From positions 1 to 29,442 of IMG/VR virus record IMGVR_UViG_2529292882_000006: a stretch of DNA of 29,442 bases; one strand, written 5' to 3'. Source of the DNA: a virus. Taxonomy: Duplodnaviria; Heunggongvirae; Uroviricota; Caudoviricetes. Position numbers and translations under genes: made by a program. Positions 2,660 through 16,852 of this stretch are shown in pieces. Numbering within the stretch: the first letter of the stretch is position 1; the number at the start of each line of letters is the position of its first letter. The notes below the pieces were generated by a model, which saw only the letters and a program-made list of their open reading frames with translations, made no database searches and had not been told where the DNA came from.

Positions 2660-3040
2660 ATGACTGAAAGCATAGAATTTGTTTTGCCTTACCCGCCAAC
2701 GGTGAACACCTACTGGCGACGTCGTGGCAGCACATATTTTGTATCAAAAGCAGGGGAGCGTTATCGCCGGGATGTGGCGCTTATTGTTCGCCAGCAGCGG
2801 CTGAAATTAAACCTGTCCGGAAGGCTGGCAATAAAAATTACTGCAGAGCCGCCGGATAAGCGCCGTCGTGACCTGGACAATATTCTGAAAGCACCACTGG
2901 ATGCGCTGACGCATGCGGGACTGCTTATCGATGACGAGCAGTTTGATGAAATCAATATTGTGCGCGGTCAGGTCGTTCCTGGTGGTCGGCTGGGCGTGAA
3001 GATTTACGAAATAATGCATGACGGGCAGGTCCAAAAATGA
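2660..3040 (+). CDS. rusA: RusA Holliday junction resolvase
   Basis: 126 aa with ...LPYPPTVNTYWRRRG... and the catalytic-region motif DKRRRDLDNILKAPLDALTHAGLLIDDEQ, matching RusA. ATG directly follows the upstream stop. Confidence 0.85.
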   Translation: MTESIEFVLPYPPTVNTYWRRRGSTYFVSKAGERYRRDVALIVRQQRLKLNLSGRLAIKITAEPPDKRRRDLDNILKAPLDALTHAGLLIDDEQFDEINIVRGQVVPGGRLGVKIYEIMHDGQVQK

Positions 3041-3858
3041 AACTGGAAGATTTACCGAAATACTATTCCCCGAAATCGCCAGGCCTGACTGATGCATCCG
3101 CCTCGACATCAAAAGATGCACTGAGTATCACTGATGTGATGGCTGCACAGGGCATGACACAGAACCGGGCTGAGATGGGATTTTCTGCGTTCCTGGGGAA
3201 AATGGGCATTAGTATGAACGACAGGGCGCGGGCAACAGAATTACTGGCAGATTATGCATTAAGTCAGTGCGATCGCGTGGCGGCGTTAAGAAAACTTCCG
3301 GCAGAAATAAAACCGGCAGTGATGCGCATTATGGCTTCGTATGCTTTTGAGGATTATGCCCGCAGTGCAGCGAGTAAAAAGCAGTGTTCTTGTTGCCGTG
3401 GGGAAAAATTTATTGAAAGCGAAGTTTTTACAAACAAGGTTCAGTATCCGGATGGTAAGCCGCCAGTATGGGCAAAGTGCACAAAAGGCGTGTATCCGTC
3501 TTATTGGGAAGAATGGAAAAAAATCCGGGAGGTGGTGAAAGTTTCCTGTCCTGAATGTAAAGGGAAGGGGGAGATTTCCACTGCCTGTAAAGACTGCCGT
3601 GGGCGTGGTGTAGCCATTCATCGTGAAGAGTCAGAAAAACGGGGTATGCCTGTTATCAGGGACTGCCAGCGTTGTGGCGGTCGTGGCTATGAAAGACAGC
3701 CGTCGACGGAGGCATTTAATGCCATACGCAAAGTGACGAGTGCTATCACGCTTGATACGTGGAAAAAATCAGTGAAACGCTTTTACGATACGTTGGTGGT
3801 TCGGTTTGACATTGAAGAGGCATGGGCGGAGCGGCAGTTAAAGAGGGTAACGCGATAG
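3037..3858 (+). CDS. Lambda-type late antiterminator Q
   Basis: N-terminus ...YSPKSPGLTD...SITDVMAAQGM... and C-terminus ...TLDTWKKSVKRFYDTLVV... parallel lambda Q; Cys-rich zinc-binding region present. ATGA overlap with the rusA stop. Confidence 0.85.
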   Translation: MKLEDLPKYYSPKSPGLTDASASTSKDALSITDVMAAQGMTQNRAEMGFSAFLGKMGISMNDRARATELLADYALSQCDRVAALRKLPAEIKPAVMRIMASYAFEDYARSAASKKQCSCCRGEKFIESEVFTNKVQYPDGKPPVWAKCTKGVYPSYWEEWKKIREVVKVSCPECKGKGEISTACKDCRGRGVAIHREESEKRGMPVIRDCQRCGGRGYERQPSTEAFNAIRKVTSAITLDTWKKSVKRFYDTLVVRFDIEEAWAERQLKRVTR

Positions 3859-3863
3859 TGTTG

Positions 3864-3903
3864 TTGATTTTTCCCGAATCTGTGGTAAATTCACCCTAAC
3901 GAT
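3864..3903 (+). promoter_or_regulatory. PR'-like late promoter with qut-type pause element
   Basis: TTGATT (3864-3869), 16-nt spacer, extended -10 TGgTAAATT (3883-3891), then AACGAT (3898-3903) at about +1 to +6, matching the sigma70-dependent pause element used by lambda Q. Confidence 0.55.
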
Positions 3904-3938
3904 GGGCGTTTTATGCCTGACGTTAGAAGAATTTTTAC

Positions 3939-3965
3939 AACCCGCCACCGAGCGGGTTTTTTATT
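3939..3965 (+). terminator. tR'-like intrinsic terminator (would release a short 6S-like transcript without Q)
   Basis: Stem CCCGC (3941-3945) / GCGGG (3952-3956), followed by TTTTTTATT. Confidence 0.6.
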
Positions 3966-4086
3966 GCCTGAAAAACGGCACAGGACGTTAAACGCGCTGG
4001 TGGTTGCGAATACCGGTCTTTCAACTTGCTGGCTTTTTCGACAAGAGTTATTGGTATGTCACGTTAACCGGAAAAGGGGAAAAGAC

Positions 4087-4284
4087 ATGCTAAAACAGCA
4101 GGATATGACCGAAACCGCCAGAGTGGTGTTTAATGAATTAAGCGTCACCGAACCGGCGACCGTCGGGGAAATTGCGCAGAATACTTACCTTTCACGCGAA
4201 CGTTGCCAGTTAATACTGACCCAGCTTGTTATGGCGGGTCTGGCAGATTATCAGTTCGGTTGTTACAGACGCCTTCCGCAGTGA
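4087..4284 (+). CDS. Small protein (65 aa) with HTH-like segment
   Basis: GGGGA 8 nt upstream of ATG 4087. Sequence MLKQQDMTETARVVFNELSVTEPATVGEIAQNTYLSRERCQLILTQLVMAGL... has helix-turn-helix character. The longer ORF-track version from 3913 would span the terminator and is not used. Confidence 0.4.
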   Translation: MLKQQDMTETARVVFNELSVTEPATVGEIAQNTYLSRERCQLILTQLVMAGLADYQFGCYRRLPQ

Positions 4285-4434
4285 AGGCTTTTTAATTTGT
4301 GGTAATGGGCGGCTGGTGGGTGTTAGCGGCACCTATCAGCCATCTGCTCATGCGTTGGGGTCACAAGCAAACCTCAGGCCCATCTGCTTTGCGCAAAAGC
4401 GGAATGAGCCTATCAGAGAAGTGCTTATTGATCT

Positions 4435-5481
4435 ATGGCTAATACTGTAAAAATATCCAGTTGTGAGTTAATCAACGCTGATTGCCTGGAATTTATCCAG
4501 ACCTTACCGGAAAACTCTGTCGATCTGATAGTCACAGACCCGCCATACTTTAAAGTGAAACCCGAAGGCTGGGATAACCAGTGGAAGGGCGACGATGATT
4601 ACCTGAAATGGCTGGATCAGTGTCTGGCGCAATTCTGGCGGGTACTGAAACCTGCCGGAAGTCTCTACCTGTTCTGTGGTCATCGCCTGGCATCTGATAT
4701 CGAAATCATGATGCGTCAGCGCTTTAATGTGCTGAATCACATTATCTGGGCGAAGCCGTCCGGGCGCTGGAACGGGTGTAACAAGGAAAGCCTGCGGGCG
4801 TATTTCCCGGCAACAGAACGCATTCTGTTTGCTGAACATTATCAGGGACCATATCAGCCCAAAAATGACGGCTATGCGGCAAAGGGGCGCGAGCTAAAAC
4901 AGCACGTCATGGCCCCGCTGATTTCTTACTTTCGTGATGCGCGTGAATCACTGGGGATAACGTCGAAACAGATAGCGGAAGCCACCGGAAAGAAAAACAT
5001 GGCTTCGCACTGGTTTGGTATCAGTCAGTGGCAGTTACCGAACGAGGGTGATTACAACAAATTGCAGGCGTTGTTTGCGCGTGTTGCGGCAGAAAAACAT
5101 CAGCGCGGGGAACTGGAAAAGCCACACCACCAGCTGGTCAGCACATACAGTGAACTGAACCGTCAATACGCCAGCCTGCTGGAAGAGTACAAATCTTTGC
5201 GACGTTATTTTTCCGTATCAGCTGCCGTTCCGTATACGGATGTCTGGACGCACAGGCCCGTGCAGTATTATCCGGGCAAACATCCCTGTGAAAAACCAGC
5301 CGATATGTTGCGCCAGATAATTACTGCCAGCAGCCGTCCGGGTGATTTGGTTGCTGATTTTTTCATGGGCTCAGGCTCAACAATAAAAGCGGCACTTTCA
5401 CTGGGACGCCGTGCGATTGGCGTGGAACTGGAAGAAGAGAGATTTAATCAGACTGTAACTGAAATAAAAAATAATCGTTAA
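4435..5481 (+). CDS. Orphan DNA methyltransferase, N6-adenine/N4-cytosine class (DPPY motif)
   Basis: 348 aa with DPPY (motif IV) near the N-terminus and FFMGSGST (motif I) near the C-terminus, i.e. beta-class permutation. No restriction endonuclease gene adjacent. Confidence 0.85.
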   Translation: MANTVKISSCELINADCLEFIQTLPENSVDLIVTDPPYFKVKPEGWDNQWKGDDDYLKWLDQCLAQFWRVLKPAGSLYLFCGHRLASDIEIMMRQRFNVLNHIIWAKPSGRWNGCNKESLRAYFPATERILFAEHYQGPYQPKNDGYAAKGRELKQHVMAPLISYFRDARESLGITSKQIAEATGKKNMASHWFGISQWQLPNEGDYNKLQALFARVAAEKHQRGELEKPHHQLVSTYSELNRQYASLLEEYKSLRRYFSVSAAVPYTDVWTHRPVQYYPGKHPCEKPADMLRQIITASSRPGDLVADFFMGSGSTIKAALSLGRRAIGVELEEERFNQTVTEIKNNR

Positions 5482-5650
5482 ATATGCATTTAATAATTTC
5501 TTTATTTTATAAAAAATAAAAACATATACCTATATTTACAAATCTTGATGTAATTTTCCATTGAAAAGAGAGCTGGTATTATTAATATCGGTCTCCGGTT
5601 CCGAAGGGGATGTAAAGCGCGGTCATTTTTATTTCTCTTGAGGAACCAAT

Positions 5651-5726
<76 letters not shown>

Positions 5727-5729
5727 TAT

Positions 5730-5804
<75 letters not shown>

Positions 5805-6073
5805 GCAGAGGACGATAGATACTAGGTTGTGTTAGGCACTGACACATTTTATGTGGGGCGTTTTTCCTGACTCCTTACCTCGCCCTGTACTGTAATGAGT
5901 GATATCGGTTGCAGCACCAGTGCCGTTTTTTACGCCACCGGAATGGTGCATTATTGGTAGAGATTTGCAATGTCTCTGGCAGGGGCCGATGATGCATCAT
6001 TCTGGTGTTGTAAATAACACCATGACATTGAGATTAATCATATATTAAGCAAAACCTGGAAACACATCCTTAA

Positions 6074-6098
6074 CCGCCTCCACCAGGCGGTTTTTTTT
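6074..6098 (+). terminator. Intrinsic terminator
   Basis: Stem CCGCCT (6074-6079) / AGGCGG (6085-6090), loop CCACC, followed by T8. Confidence 0.55.
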
Positions 6099-6421
6099 AT
6101 TCTTAATTCGAAAAAAAGAAAACACGGACACTGATAATGTCCGTGCGGCAATGCCATGTAAGTCAGCGATGAATATGGCGCAAAAAAAGCGCGGCTGTCG
6201 GATTAACGCCGCGGGACAAAGTCCGTGAAGAAGAATAAGTATCGATCTCCTTCCGGAGACGAGTTGATATTACTAAGCTTTAAAAATGGTTTAAATCCTC
6301 AGATTGACCTTAATTTCCGGTAAGTCTTATTTCATTTTCTCCGCGCTACCTCCGGCGCACATCACATCAGATAACACCACACAAAAGGCATCTGCAGGTG
6401 CCTTTGACGGGGTGTTTTTAT

Positions 6422-6443
6422 GGGCCGCTGGTGGCCCTTTTTT
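6422..6443 (+). terminator. Terminator-like hairpin immediately upstream of the lysis genes
   Basis: Stem GGGCC (6422-6426) / GGCCC (6433-6437), loop GCTGGT, then TTTTTT. It lies 20 nt before the RBS of the first lysis gene. Confidence 0.4.
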
Positions 6444-6462
6444 ATTTACAGGAGAAAAAAGT

Positions 6463-6855
6463 ATGTCTGAACCCTTATCCGGTTCCGGCACGGCTGTGGC
6501 GCTCGGCGGGGCGACGGTATTCGGGCTGTTTACCGGAACGGATTTCGGGATTGTGTTTGGTGCGTTCGCCGGGGCGTTATTTGTGGCAACGATGCCACAG
6601 GCGCTTTCAGCCTGGCGTGTGGCGGCGCATTTTCTGGTGTCGTTCATTATCGGCGTGCTGGGCGCAGAGGTTCTGGCATCCTGGCTGGTAAAGCATACAG
6701 GGTTTGACGGTGCGCCTGTCGACGCACTGTGTGCAGTGCTGGTGTCAGTGGTGTCGGTGAAGATTCTCTCGTTCATCCACCAGCAGGATATTGCATCGCT
6801 GGTGTCCGGCCTGTTCTCCCGCCTGCGGGGTGGAGGAGGCGGCAATGTTAAGTAA
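6463..6855 (+). CDS. Putative holin (multi-TM membrane protein, 130 aa)
   Basis: GGAG 7 nt upstream of ATG 6463. Gly/Ala-rich hydrophobic segments with a charged C-terminal tail (...SRLRGGGGGNVK). First gene of the cassette that ends with the endolysin. Confidence 0.45.
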   Translation: MSEPLSGSGTAVALGGATVFGLFTGTDFGIVFGAFAGALFVATMPQALSAWRVAAHFLVSFIIGVLGAEVLASWLVKHTGFDGAPVDALCAVLVSVVSVKILSFIHQQDIASLVSGLFSRLRGGGGGNVK

Positions 6856-7123
6856 CCTTCCCGGATTGCTGAATGTGGCGTTATGCACGGTTATCGTGCT
6901 GACGCTCTTTTTTTATCGTCGCCGTGATTCCAGACATAAACCGCTGATGTCATGGCTGGCCTGGCTGCTGATGCTGCTGTATGCCTTTGCGCCCCTCAGC
7001 TATCTGTGTGGTCGCCCGTTAGCAACGGGCTGGCTGGAAGTGTTTTTTAACCTGCTGTTCTGCGTGCTGGTGATACGCGCACGCGGGAACGTCACAAGAA
7101 TCTTTCCATTGTTGAGGCACTGA
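6845..7123 (+). CDS. Putative second holin/antiholin membrane protein (92 aa)
   Basis: ATG 6845 overlaps the end of the upstream gene. Three hydrophobic segments with Arg-rich loops. Its stop at 7121-7123 is 1 nt before the endolysin ATG. Confidence 0.4.
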   Translation: MLSNLPGLLNVALCTVIVLTLFFYRRRDSRHKPLMSWLAWLLMLLYAFAPLSYLCGRPLATGWLEVFFNLLFCVLVIRARGNVTRIFPLLRH

Positions 7124-7124
7124 G

Positions 7125-7670
7125 ATGAAATCAAAGGACGTCATTTTTGATGAAATCCTCGGAAAAGAGGGTGGCTACGTCAATCATCCGGACGATAAAG
7201 GTGGGCCGACAAAATGGGGTATTACAGAAAAAGTCGCCCGCGCTCACGGATATCGCGGCGATATGCGTGACCTGACGCGCGGGCAGGCGCTGGAAATACT
7301 CGAGGCGGATTACTGGTTCGGACCACGTTTTGACCAGGTCGCCGCATTATCCCCTGATATTGCTGCAGAGTTGTGTGATACCGGTGTGAATATGGGGCCG
7401 TCCGTAGCATCGAAAATGCTCCAACGCTGGCTGAACGTTTTCAACCTGCAAGGCAAATTGTTCCCGGATATGGACGCAGACGGGCGTATCGGCCCCCGCA
7501 CGATTAATGCACTACGGACTTATCTGCAAAAACGCGGCAAAGACGGCGAACTGGTGATGCTGAAGGCGCTGAATTGCACGCAGGGTGACCGCTATCTGGA
7601 GCTGGCAGAAAAACGCGAGGCCAACGAGTCGTTTGTCTACGGCTGGATGAAAGAGCGCGTAGCAGTTTAA
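7125..7670 (+). CDS. Endolysin, GH108 N-acetylmuramidase with PG_binding_3-type domain
   Basis: N-terminal signature ILGKEGGYVNHPDDKGGPTKWGIT, which is the GH108 motif, plus a C-terminal peptidoglycan-binding-like region. No signal peptide. Confidence 0.8.
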   Translation: MKSKDVIFDEILGKEGGYVNHPDDKGGPTKWGITEKVARAHGYRGDMRDLTRGQALEILEADYWFGPRFDQVAALSPDIAAELCDTGVNMGPSVASKMLQRWLNVFNLQGKLFPDMDADGRIGPRTINALRTYLQKRGKDGELVMLKALNCTQGDRYLELAEKREANESFVYGWMKERVAV

Positions 7671-7763
7671 AAACTGACGCTGAAGTGCTGAACACCCTCA
7701 ACTCATGCTGGCTCTTTTCTGGGGCTACGATGAGCGAAAGTAAGGGGCATAGCATCAGATAGC

Positions 7764-7800
7764 AAAAACCCCGGCTGCGGTAACAGTCCGGGGTTTTCTG
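7764..7800 (+). terminator. Intrinsic terminator after the endolysin
   Basis: A-run, then stem CCCCGG (7769-7774) / CCGGGG (7788-7793), then TTTTCTGTTTCT. Confidence 0.55.
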
Positions 7801-7830
7801 TTTCTGGCCTTGGGTAAGGCAAAGGAGAAC

Positions 7831-14732: not shown

Positions 14733-16779
14733 TCCCCGCGCCAGCCTTGCGGGGGTGGATGCCGCTAATGGTCAGTGCTGGTATGAAATCCGTGCGCAGA
14801 CTGCCGGGCGGGTGGAAATTTACCTCTATGACGTGATTGGCGGATGGGGCATCACCGCGCAGCAGTTTATTGCTGACTGTAAGGATGCGGGGGTGTTTGA
14901 GGCCAGCGCTATTGATCTGCATATCCACAGCCCGGGCGGCGATGTGATGCAGGGGTTTGCCATTTTTAACACGCTGTCACGGCTGAAAGCGAAGGTGGAT
15001 ATCTGGGTGGATGGTGTTGCAGCCAGCATGGCCTCCATGATTGTCTGCCTGCCTGGCGCCACAGTGCATATGCCTGAAAATTCCTGGCTGATGATACACA
15101 AGCCGTGGGGCGGGATCGCCGGTGATTCCGATGATATGCGTGATTATGCTGACTGGCTGGATCGCAACGAGGCGCTGATGCTGTCAGCCTACATGAATAA
15201 AACCGGACTCGGGCAGGAGGAGCTGGAAGCCATGCTGAAAGCAGAAACCTGGCTGAACGGTGCTGAAGCCGTGGAAAAAGGCTTCGCTGATACGCTTGAA
15301 CCTGAATTACAGGCTGCGGCCTGTGTGAACCAAAATAAACTGAAGGATTACCATAATATGCCAGAACAGATTAACGCGCTTTTTGCTCCACGTGCAGAAA
15401 CGACAAACGGACAGCCGCAGGAGCCGAAAGCAACCCCGCAAAATGCGCAACAGATCGCTGCTCAGCAGGCACCATTAACCGGAAATGTGGATATCAGCGC
15501 AATTGCTTCGCAGGTTCAGCAACAACTGATGGCAGCCAATGCGGAACGTGTGCAGGCTGTAACCGCAGTTTTTGCCTCTTTCCCGTCTTATGCCGCACTG
15601 AAAGCGGAGTGTCTGAACGACATGACCTGTACGGAAGCACAGGCCCGTGAAAAACTGTTGCAGGCGCTGGCAGCCGGAACGACACCAAGTGCAGGCCCGG
15701 GCGCTGTTCATATTCATGCCGGGAACGGTAATCTGGTCGGCGATTCCATTCGTGCGGCTGTGATGGCACGCGCCGGATATGCCGAAGCAGAAAAAGATAA
15801 TGCTTATAACGGTTTTACACTGCGCGAGCTGGCGCGTGCTTCGCTGGTTGATCGCGGTATCGGTATCTCCGGTCATTCCGCACCGATGGCGATGGTGGGG
15901 CTGGCATTTACTCACAGCAGCAGCGATTTCGGCAATATCCTGATGGATGTGGCTCATAAAGCTGCGTTGCAGGGCTGGGATGATGCCAGCGAAAATTTTG
16001 ACAAATGGACCCGCAAGGGAACGCTGACTGATTTTAAAACCGCGCATCGTGTCGGGCTGGAAACTTTCCCGACGCTACGAAAAGTATTGCCGGGGGCTGA
16101 ATATAAATATGTGACCCTGAAAGATCGTGGCGAACCGATTGCACTGGCGACTTATGGCGAATTGTTCAGCATTGATCGCCAGACCATCATCAATGATGAC
16201 CTGGATATGCTGACCCGTATTCCGATGGCAATGGGGGCGGCAGCGCGGACTACCGTGGGTGATCTGGTCTGGGCCGTGCTGACCAGCAATCCGAAAATGT
16301 CGGATGGCAAACCGCTGTTCCATGCAGATCATGGCAACTTGGTGACTGCAGATTTGTCTATTGAGGGGCTGGATTCCGGGCGTAAAGCCATGCTGCTCCA
16401 GAAATCGGGTGACCGCCGCCTGAACATTCGTCCTGCTTTTATGTTGACGCCTGTTGCCATTGAGTCGCGTGCCAATCAGTTGATTAAGTCTGCCAGCGTG
16501 CCCGGTGCAGATGCGAACAGCGGCATTATTAACCCGATTCAGAATTTTGCCACGGTTCTGTCAGAGGCCCGTCTTGATGACAGCAGCCCGACGGATTATT
16601 ACCTGGTAGCAGCGCAGGGGCGTGACACGATTGAAGTGGCTTACCTCGACGGTATTGATACGCCGTATCTGGAGCAGCAACAGGGCTTTACGGTTGATGG
16701 TGCAGCATTCAAGGTGCGCATTGATGCCGGAGTGGCACCGCTTGACTGGCGTGGCATGGTCAAAGTGAAAAAACAATAA
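14689..16779 (+). CDS. Head maturation protease (ClpP/S14-like) fused to scaffold-like linker and major capsid protein
   Basis: Single 696-aa ORF. N-terminal about 200 aa are ClpP-like (IHSPGGDVMQGFAIFN...VAASMASMI...MIHKPW), middle is Gln/Ala-rich and helical, C-terminal about 300 aa are capsid-like. AAGGAG precedes ATG 14689; an alternative ATG at 14725 overlaps the portal stop. Confidence 0.7.
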   Translation: MQQMINPRLRGTMINPRASLAGVDAANGQCWYEIRAQTAGRVEIYLYDVIGGWGITAQQFIADCKDAGVFEASAIDLHIHSPGGDVMQGFAIFNTLSRLKAKVDIWVDGVAASMASMIVCLPGATVHMPENSWLMIHKPWGGIAGDSDDMRDYADWLDRNEALMLSAYMNKTGLGQEELEAMLKAETWLNGAEAVEKGFADTLEPELQAAACVNQNKLKDYHNMPEQINALFAPRAETTNGQPQEPKATPQNAQQIAAQQAPLTGNVDISAIASQVQQQLMAANAERVQAVTAVFASFPSYAALKAECLNDMTCTEAQAREKLLQALAAGTTPSAGPGAVHIHAGNGNLVGDSIRAAVMARAGYAEAEKDNAYNGFTLRELARASLVDRGIGISGHSAPMAMVGLAFTHSSSDFGNILMDVAHKAALQGWDDASENFDKWTRKGTLTDFKTAHRVGLETFPTLRKVLPGAEYKYVTLKDRGEPIALATYGELFSIDRQTIINDDLDMLTRIPMAMGAAARTTVGDLVWAVLTSNPKMSDGKPLFHADHGNLVTADLSIEGLDSGRKAMLLQKSGDRRLNIRPAFMLTPVAIESRANQLIKSASVPGADANSGIINPIQNFATVLSEARLDDSSPTDYYLVAAQGRDTIEVAYLDGIDTPYLEQQQGFTVDGAAFKVRIDAGVAPLDWRGMVKVKKQ

Positions 16780-16781
16780 AT

Positions 16782-16808
16782 AACCGCCGGACAGGGCGGT
16801 TTTTTTTA
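16782..16808 (+). terminator. Intrinsic terminator after the capsid gene
   Basis: Stem AACCGCC (16782-16788) / GGCGGTT (16795-16801), followed by T8. Confidence 0.6.
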
Positions 16809-16852
16809 TGGCTGAAGCGGCGCACTTTGCGCCGCATTTACTGGAGAAAAAA

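Follow-up and report, generated by a model that had tools for sequence, protein, structure and literature searches.

Small RNAs (sRNAs) that tune host metabolism and virulence, among them AgvB, AsxR and the Pas sRNAs, are known to lie hidden in the moron sites of prophages. A moron, in the sense of Juhala et al. 2000, is said to be an additional gene for a protein that brings its own promoter and terminator and lies between genes that are adjacent in related phages. Tree et al. 2014 reported pairs of convergent sRNAs at the moron site, 3′ of PR′, of eight prophages of the enterohaemorrhagic Escherichia coli (EHEC) strain Sakai (PMC4104026); AgvB and AsxR are anti-sRNAs of 51-60 nt that are antisense to the late transcript (PMC4104026). 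PasA-D were confirmed by Northern blot by Pearl Mizrahi et al., with Hfq-dependent stability (PMC8550237). According to Zhu et al., PasA, PasC and PasD1 typically adjoin the holin/lysozyme operon, TerB lies <10 kb from most PasA/PasC genes, and tRNA matches are common in the flanks (bioRxiv 10.64898/2026.05.13.724894). Here we analysed a site of this type in a 29,442-nucleotide stretch of viral DNA (Caudoviricetes; IMG/VR record IMGVR_UViG_2529292882_000006, positions 1 to 29,442), which is called the window below and whose numbering is used throughout. The interval studied comprises the 658 bases at 5805-6462, from the 3′ end of a tRNA-Gly gene (5804) to the start codon of a holin gene (6463).

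Small RNAs can also derive from tRNA operons: cleavage of the 3′ external transcribed spacer of the glyW-cysT-leuZ tRNA operon gives rise to the sRNA sponge 3′ETS-leuZ. RNase III processing hairpins are found in the N leader and sib of lambda and at the early sites of T7, and the stable 'species 1/2' RNAs are co-transcribed with the T4 tRNA cluster. Late control in lambda and Stx phages involves Q, PR′, tR′ and a short 6S/StxS RNA (PMC7547250). The leuZ sponge is listed as 3′ESTleuZ in the tables of PMC8550237.

The interval is probably an intact non-coding junction of a lambdoid late operon that is built from exchangeable modules working at the RNA level, and not a decayed cargo site. An earlier note on this DNA had described it as gene-poor, with two terminators and several hairpins, and had proposed that this classic insertion site is empty or eroded, or that it encodes an sRNA or a Q-dependent attenuator of lysis.

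Conserved modules of the interval

No open reading frame (ORF) of the interval is conserved, which agrees with the gene-poor description. The longest ORFs are 49 aa on the plus strand and 41 aa on the minus strand, the two longest plus-strand ORFs have no Pfam match, and indels interrupt the reading frames in 68, 47 and 41 of 73 distinct homologues. In the closest relatives the same spacer is left unannotated by the NCBI pipeline.

BLAST of 5500-7000 against about 70 distinct relatives revealed that the interval is a mosaic of non-coding modules (Table 1), shared at 75-99% identity across hundreds of E. coli prophages. Recurrent breakpoints are located at the module edges (6014-6023, 6072-6086, 6176-6182, 6364/6371, 6402/6419 and 6450). 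The last module, M5, also precedes the unrelated essD holin, where the homology extends up to 6450. In the alignment to relatives for which the earlier note had called, about 50 of 72 distinct related sequences have the same gene-free arrangement as the window, and genes are present at the slot in other relatives. Genes for TerB and DUF3927 (~680 bp) are found between 6364 and 6371 in L004, L012, L017 and other E. coli prophages; phiP27 has stx2eAB and a small minus-strand ORF in the stretch from its tRNAs to the same holin, and its homology to the window begins again at 6371; and at a second junction (6402/6419) two other genes are present in L003 and L016. These relatives bear out the view of the slot as a classic moron/toxin insertion site. 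That it is empty of protein cargo in the window was also correct: the junction 6364/6371 is unoccupied, the interval has no similarity to stx, TerB or other cargo genes, and with no conserved ORF it contains no extra protein gene with its own promoter and terminator.

The M2/M3a piece was found in 212/5426 complete E. coli genomes and M3b in 477/5426, and the M3b motif is also present in 116 IMG/VR viral contigs; a contig scan using the holin as query gave 6 loci. Overall, 4-9% of complete E. coli genomes contain the modules, among them those of enterotoxigenic (ETEC), avian pathogenic (APEC) and commensal strains, where they are unannotated or misannotated as hypothetical proteins and fall outside described families. 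Among the GenBank phages (50,697 records) only SerU-LTIIb and vB_EcoS-683R6 carry the modules, so the well-studied Stx phages are unusable as expression proxies. The induced phage vB_EcoS-683R6 has the order Q-tRNAThr-tRNAGly-spacer-holin. The nmpC-essD spacer of the K-12 prophage DLP12 and the E2348/69 prophages are without the modules, and no O157 genome with interval DNA was seen among the matches listed. In SerU-LTIIb (L001, KU052038) the tRNA-spacer-holin module is present twice in tandem (1122-2456 and 3028-4395); the two copies differ in cassette and M3 content, and the LT-IIb toxin genes are located past the lysis genes, outside the slot. In one IMG/VR contig (L070) the spacer from hairpin B to M3b is longer and includes an extra terminator-ended unit as well as a sequence that resembles a tRNA 3′ half (GGTTCGAGTCCCCGG...CCA).

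Module M1 is a structured plus-strand RNA. From an alignment of 71 homologues (65 distinct), RNAalifold gave for 5835-6014 a consensus of −41.5 kcal/mol with 46 pairs, 13 of which showed compensatory double changes. When the structure was fixed, 96.7% of the cells were paired, compared with 30-54% when the partners were slid by 1-3 columns, and 0/500 shuffles reached the observed pairing or covariation. G·T wobbles of the plus strand numbered 575, versus 31 A·C combinations, which are wobbles on the minus strand, and the consensus fold energy was −31 for the plus strand versus −1.4 for the minus strand. The constraint acts on RNA and not on a DNA palindrome. The fold has two parts. The closing stem of domain A is 98.7% paired, with six of its seven pairs (near-)invariant and the outermost one variable, and compensatory changes were found at 4/5 pairs of one inner helix. 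The G and six U residues that follow (5926-5931) may serve as a first terminator of the tRNA transcript. Hairpin B is paired in 98.5% of cells over 65 distinct sequences and has 7 pairs with compensatory changes.

Two other identities were considered for these folds and rejected. Domain A is a four-way junction with a 7-bp closing stem, yet its arms are atypical for a tRNA cloverleaf; ARAGORN finds only the two tRNAs, and no Rfam tRNA match with E ≤ 1 was obtained over 5835-5924. Weak Rfam matches to microRNA families at 5927-6018 merely reflect the long hairpin B.

M2, which follows hairpin B, was aligned from 18 distinct homologues and has mosaic breakpoints at 6014-6023 and 6072-6102. In L023, L024, L029 and about 35 other loci its body is replaced by an alternative cassette of ~175 nt, with hairpin B and the terminator unchanged; the exchange of the body with retention of the terminator fits a functional RNA body. 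The alternative cassette is a structured multi-stem plus-strand RNA (38 distinct sequences, G·U 56 versus A·C 3, 6 compensatory pairs). Its sole database link is a sub-threshold match to STnc100 (22.6 bits), and PasD is beyond the reach of its nhmmer profile. Most simply, M1 and M2 would together form the 3′ trailer of the tRNA unit, with the T8 terminator as the terminator of that unit. A terminator near-identical to that of M2 (AACCGCC...GGCGGTTTTTTTT) was found by both the M2 covariance model and the nhmmer profile of the alternative cassette at 16770-16809, among the structural genes of the window.

Beyond T8, units of the opposite strand are found. M3a (6181→6108) has a minimum free energy (MFE) of −20.7 kcal/mol (z −2.8), and compensatory changes were seen in its alignment, with module boundaries at ~6086-6102 and 6176-6182. 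It appears to be essentially a strong terminator (6146→6108), placed tail-to-tail with the T8 terminator and preceded by ~35 nt of variable sequence (6181→6147). The hairpin which the earlier note placed at 6125-6143 is indeed present, but it is really the 11-bp stem 6122-6146 of this minus-strand terminator, followed by TTTTCTTTTTT.

M3b contains a candidate sRNA read from 6262 to 6182 on the minus strand. It starts with a stem-loop (6259→6246), reported earlier as a hairpin at 6245-6262 and found here to covary, and continues with a conserved pyrimidine-rich single strand, AUACUUAUUCUUCUUCA (6243→6227), in which a CUUC tract is invariant. A 4-bp stem-loop (6224→6214), a 6-bp GC-only terminator stem (6213→6208/6195→6190) and seven U residues (6188→6182) complete it. 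In 26 sequences, each <97% identical to the others, 98.1% of the cells were paired versus 39-56% after sliding, 4 compensatory pairs were found, and 0/500 shuffles reached the covariation score. One base pair alternates between U-A (15 of the 26 sequences) and U·G (9 of the 26, and 25/60 of a larger set), a wobble that is valid on the minus strand only. Hfq-type base-pairing sRNAs are characterised by a terminator hairpin with a U-tail of at least six, a conserved unpaired seed and a covarying structure; M3b has this anatomy at 6182-6262 and looks like such an sRNA, whose stability may depend on Hfq. No site complementary to its seed was found elsewhere in the window, nor were targets of the M2 seed found inside the window. 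The 12-nt loop of its terminator, GUUAAUCCGACA (6196-6207, minus strand), is nearly invariant in the 26 diverse sequences. This loop is conserved beyond the need of a terminator and could be a kissing-loop or protein-binding site. The −10 element of the putative M3b promoter is TAGTAT in divergent relatives.

In the holin leader, the terminator Ht, whose position before the holin agrees with the earlier note (stem 6422-6437, T6 6438-6443, ending 20 nt 5′ of the ATG), is conserved across 57 distinct sequences taken from 147 loci (G·T 62 versus A·C 1). It is common to phiP27 and to prophages with the essD holin, that is, to two unrelated holin types. Intrinsic terminators were defined by a GC-rich hairpin with a U-run directly after it on the transcribed strand. 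The scan predicted them at 6072-6100 (+), 6422-6443 (+) and 6146→6108 (−), the first of which is the T8 terminator expected by the note (stem 6072-6092, T8 6093-6100). The one at 6213→6182 (−) was predicted by reading, as its 12-nt loop is beyond the limit of the scan. In the scan, 3500-7500 has 12 terminator-like sites compared with 4.4 +/- 2.3 in shuffles, and five lie within the 658 bp of the interval, on both strands. The RNA folds at 5835-6014 and the second minus-strand terminator (6190-6213, with T7 at 6188→6182) are the strongest features, and the earlier note did not list them.

Proposed function and rival explanations

The preferred reading, an intact junction of RNA modules, leads to the following model. 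In the lysogen, the tRNA promoter would transcribe tRNA-Thr, tRNA-Gly, domain A and hairpin B, and transcription would end in part at the U-run behind domain A and completely at T8. As no promoter was found between tRNA-Gly and 6100, we infer that M2 is co-transcribed with the tRNAs; processing would then free a stable small RNA, with the long hairpin B as a textbook substrate of the RNase III type. The CyaR-like anti-Shine-Dalgarno hairpin of M2 suggests regulation by base pairing. On the other strand an sRNA would be transcribed from 6262→6182, backed up by the terminator 6146→6108, and both would converge on T8. Ht and the other terminators would keep transcription from the constitutive tRNA promoter or from moron promoters out of the lysis genes in the lysogen, and Q-modified polymerase coming from pR′ (~3.9 kb) would read through all terminators of the interval.

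Of the two functions that the earlier note had offered, the sRNA is the better supported, for candidates that combine conserved strand-specific structures with terminator-bounded units on both strands. The Q-dependent attenuator was imprecise and misplaced. The putative promoter/terminator pair of Q is at about 3862-3965, just past the Q gene, where Q would load, and the terminators of the interval, being 2 kb past that point, are not the Q-controlled attenuator itself. They look like ordinary intrinsic terminators, whose most likely role is to shield the lysis genes from transcription in the lysogen and not to set the time of lysis.

Several observations weigh against the preferred reading. 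No conserved sigma-70 or sigma-54 match for an M2 promoter was seen by reading between tRNA-Gly and 6100 in the window and homologues. The same was found for hairpin B, and for a plus-strand RNA that would start near 6340. The promoter-like match of M3b is 8/12, below the scan threshold; its helices are short and mostly invariant, so that covariation rests on 4 pairs; and the MFE structure of the window sequence pairs the putative seed with the 5′ stem. The near-invariant block 6262-6340, which overlaps the putative M3b promoter with its upstream region and the 3′ two-thirds of a small ORF (orf32), remains unaccounted for by the favoured model. Moreover, the sequences are closely related (75-99% identity), and shared ancestry therefore explains part of the pairing conservation. 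The small RNAs proposed here are candidates derived from sequence and structure.

The most serious competing view holds that all the hairpins are either terminators or elements that stabilise RNA, belonging to the tRNA unit and the late operon, without any trans-acting RNA, and that their conservation comes from silencing the lysis genes in the lysogen and protecting processed transcript ends. The five terminator-like sites on both strands, the position of Ht directly before two unrelated types of holin and the lack of a recognised M2 promoter all speak for it. However, terminators need no 34-bp G·U-rich hairpin, four-way junction, unpaired pyrimidine tract or conserved 12-nt loop, and a body that is exchanged as a cassette while its terminator stays constant is the pattern of a functional RNA; we regard this view as somewhat unlikely. 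If it is correct, the interval is an ordinary insulation device for the lysis genes. Decidedly less credit is given to the idea that the conserved blocks are DNA linkers for homologous exchange of phage modules and the RNA structures incidental. The breakpoints do recur at few positions, and the same flanks border various holin cassettes or cargo, but the G·U versus A·C asymmetry and the compensatory changes are properties of RNA and not of a recombination substrate. A linker role is also compatible with the RNA reading and does not exclude it. Erosion of a former toxin or moron gene by neutral drift, the earlier note's alternative to an empty slot, is scarcely credible: the position is the classic one for cargo and holds no ORF, but the sequence resembles no stx, TerB or other cargo gene, the modules are conserved in hundreds of prophages with pairs kept by compensatory changes, and most relatives are gene-free in the same way. 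The conservation data already contradict it.

The possibility of a small protein concerns mainly orf32 (32 codons, 6225-6323, plus strand) and the 'hypothetical proteins' of 80-103 aa annotated by PGAP in some relatives. In 41/60 distinct sequences orf32 is uninterrupted, its C-terminal half is conserved, and its codon-position entropies (0.42/0.30/0.48) show a weak periodicity. On the other hand, it is broken in 19/60, almost no third-position excess is seen, the three codon positions of the conserved half are equally conserved, and the conservation extends past the stop codon. The substitutions of its variable half are compensatory hairpin changes that alter the peptide. The ORFs predicted by PGAP span both convergent terminator hairpins without conservation of the frame; if the interval RNAs are expressed, ORFs called across these terminators are probably spurious. 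Given also the absence of Pfam matches, we consider a coding function very unlikely.

Another proposal is that M2 (6015-6100) is a prophage-borne homologue of CyaR, acting on CyaR-type targets through an anti-Shine-Dalgarno seed. The Rfam model of CyaR (RF00112) matches 6028-6097 over its full length (31.3 bits, E 0.007 in a 5-kb search), and a covariance model built from 12 M2 homologues picked K-12 cyaR co-linearly over the whole model (17.3 bits, E 0.17 in 68.5 kb). At 6053-6071, ACCUGGAAACACAUCCUUA is identical to the CyaR seed hairpin ACCAGGAACCACCUCCUUA at 16/19 positions, a level reached by 13/2000 shuffles, and the hairpin has the same distance to the terminator as in CyaR. Against this, the score is below the gathering score of 47 for CyaR_RyeE, with no match at the gathering threshold, and among 15 relatives only L016 scores (27.9 bits), the resemblance being absent or weaker in most; part of the score is contributed by a generic terminator. 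Three seed positions differ, blastn gave no link between M2 and cyaR, and no TGTGA-N6-TCACA with the correct spacing for a CRP-activated promoter was seen by reading upstream of 6028-6053 in the window and 18 homologues. Homology is thus unlikely in our view, and the resemblance may be taken as a lead rather than as family membership. In E. coli K-12 (L159, 1115-1201 and 1184-1812), chromosomal cyaR extends at its 3′ end across the border annotated for PR-X, a cryptic P2-like prophage, which places the CyaR terminator itself at a phage junction.

The tRNA-trailer scaffold is the most distinctive, previously undescribed part of the locus. In the boldest form of the preferred reading, which we think quite improbable, the trailer would be a processing scaffold for swappable regulatory cassettes, either a short CyaR-mimicking sRNA or a 175-nt RNA, which would be cut free in the lysogen and rewire host post-transcriptional control, paired with an undescribed antisense sRNA (6262→6182) found in ~9% of complete E. 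coli genomes. If expressed, the RNAs would be a new set of prophage sRNAs, possibly with one that mimics CyaR, a core sRNA, and the trailer of a tRNA operon, equipped with a processing hairpin, would be a route by which phages could make sRNAs in lysogens without a dedicated promoter.

Coordinates and phage context

The coordinates of the features are listed in Table 1.

Table 1 Features in and around the interval (positions with an arrow are read along the minus strand)
Feature	Position	Strand	Description
pR′-like late promoter	within 3862-3965	+	TTGATT ... TGgTAAATT, extended −10; read from sequence; putative pR′
tR′-like terminator	within 3862-3965	+	3939-3958 and T-run; terminator scan; directly 3′ of the Q gene
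Sigma-70 promoter-like sites	5555-5588	+	TTGAAA-16-TAATAT and TTTCCA-16-TATTAT with TG; consensus match; AT-rich, upstream of the tRNAs; putative function
tRNA-Thr(TGT)	5651-5726	+	ARAGORN; Rfam tRNA, 58.8 bits
tRNA-Gly(TCC)	5730-5804	+	ARAGORN; Rfam tRNA, 65.6 bits
Module M1	5805-6014		Always accompanies the tRNAs
Domain A	5835-5924	+	Four-way junction; 7-bp closing stem GGCACUG/CAGUGCC; MFE −31 kcal/mol, z −3.0
Hairpin B	5929-6014	+	~34-bp G·U-rich stem; −46.6 kcal/mol, z −7.9; minus strand −26.6
Module M2	6015-6100		Cassette ending in the T8 terminator
M2 short allele	6015-6100	+	Near-invariant unpaired stretch; 3-bp hairpin 6058-6069; terminator 6072-6092 and T8 6093-6100
Module M3a	6103-6181		Opens (plus strand) with an A-run, the U-tail of a minus-strand terminator
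M3a terminator	6146→6122 stem, then UUUUCUUUUUU 6121→6108	−	11 bp, 5 GC pairs; scan
Module M3b	6182-6364		Opens (plus strand) with an A-run, the U-tail of a minus-strand terminator
M3b candidate small RNA	6262→6182	−	Putative 5′ end; breakpoint exactly at 6182
Putative M3b promoter	−35 6295→6290; −10 6272→6267	−	TTTAAA, 17-nt spacer, TAATAT; conserved
Near-invariant block	6262-6340	no strand	Conservation profile, 60 distinct sequences
Hairpin Hd	6343-6358	+	GCGCU/GGCGC; compensatory changes, CG/TA exchanges; G·T 11 versus A·C 1
Cargo insertion junction	6364-6371	no strand	Empty in the window; homology to relatives breaks off at 6364 and starts again at 6371
Module M5	6371-6462		Holin leader
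Hairpin He	6387-6402	+	GGCAUC/GGUGCC; read from sequence; conserved in 57 distinct leaders
Terminator Ht	6422-6443	+	6-bp GC-rich stem and T6; 6 nt 5′ of Shine-Dalgarno AGGAG (6450-6454); 20 nt 5′ of ATG (6463)

The Q antiterminator gene is located at 3037-3858 (PF03589, E 7e-50), and a short constitutive RNA like 6S/StxS is expected from the pR′/tR′ region that follows it. A weak Rfam match to 'Trp leader' at 3877-3965 is probably the tR′-like terminator. Between pR′ and the methylase gene there is an ORF of 65 codons (4088-4288) for a TrmB-like helix-turn-helix protein with its own terminator (4271-4288), which on position alone corresponds to L23 of phiP27. Pfam identified the DNA methylase gene at 4435-5481, upstream of the tRNAs, and lysis genes 3′ of the interval: a PF16931 holin (6463-6855), a second holin and a GH108 endolysin. 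The window as a whole is a temperate phage with a three-way mosaic make-up. The lambdoid RusA/Q regulatory region is 87-91% identical to several E. coli phages, the methylase and lysis cassette is phiP27-like (94%), and the structural genes, tail sheath and baseplate among them, are related to those of Citrobacter phage Chris1 (78%).

Comparison with known systems

The Rfam check that the earlier note had proposed was carried out on the window and 15 related loci in E-value and gathering modes; only the tRNAs were above threshold, and no known sRNA family reached its gathering score. The models of AgvB (RF02702) and AsxR (RF02703), families with a conserved 3′ region of ~42 nt, gave no match with E <= 1 in 3000-8000 and none at the gathering threshold in the whole window. 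In position the locus corresponds to theirs: the minus-strand terminators 6146→6108 and 6213→6182 face the plus-strand terminator 6072-6100, in a slot that is set by the cargo of relatives. As with AgvB/AsxR, this slot lies downstream of a Q-antiterminated PR′, between cargo and lysis genes, with variants that differ among prophages, and terminator-ended units on the two strands face each other, one partner being antisense to the late transcript. AgvB and AsxR are expressed, Hfq-bound RNAs that sequester a core sRNA; the M3b candidate, predicted here from its sequence, would differ in length (~80 nt versus 51-60 nt).

The Pas/STnc100 loci of the enteropathogenic E. coli (EPEC) strain E2348/69 are similar in having an adjacent holin operon, TerB within 10 kb, frequent tRNA matches in the flanks, one sense and one antisense terminator-ended RNA, and recombination variants. 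In our reading of the E2348/69 loci PasD is encoded in sense and PasA in antisense orientation, the same layout as in the window, and the order Q ... (TerB/DUF3927) ... sRNA ... holin-lysozyme is shared. At the sequence level, blastn (word size 7) against the E2348/69 loci found nothing beyond chance, the M3b and M2 covariance models gave no match better than E ~0.85 in L025-L027, and the M3b model found nothing in Pas loci, phiP27 or elsewhere. STnc100 (RF02076) has no match in the window, and its score noted above was obtained solely in the alternative cassette of one relative.

CyaR (RyeE, RF00112), a CRP-dependent core sRNA, resembles M2 in having a small UCCUU hairpin directly 5′ of a GC-rich terminator, with sub-threshold model matches in both directions. 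Unlike CyaR, an independent gene, M2 sits in a tRNA trailer, is below the gathering score, has the three seed differences and is without a CRP-type promoter. The proposed origin of M2 would resemble that of 3′ETS-leuZ, in which a tRNA trailer with its terminator becomes a small RNA by processing, with no promoter of its own; the trailer in the window is far longer (~300 nt), has two conserved structured domains, and its processing is predicted. Long, near-perfect double-stranded stems in polycistronic phage transcripts, and stable non-tRNA RNAs linked to tRNAs, are features shared with the RNase III sites of lambda and T7 and with species 1/2 of T4, with the difference that cleavage of hairpin B is a prediction. 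Compared with late control in lambda and Stx phages, the Q-PR′-tR′ arrangement at 3037-3965 is alike, and Q-modified polymerase is expected to override downstream terminators; unlike there, the terminators of the interval lie 2 kb downstream of the Q loading site.

The locus thus has the same layout as the sRNA loci of EHEC and EPEC, with RNAs that match none of the families compared, and we conclude that the type of locus is known and that its RNAs fall outside described families. The layout is one that specialists would expect; the particular RNAs are widespread and unannotated.

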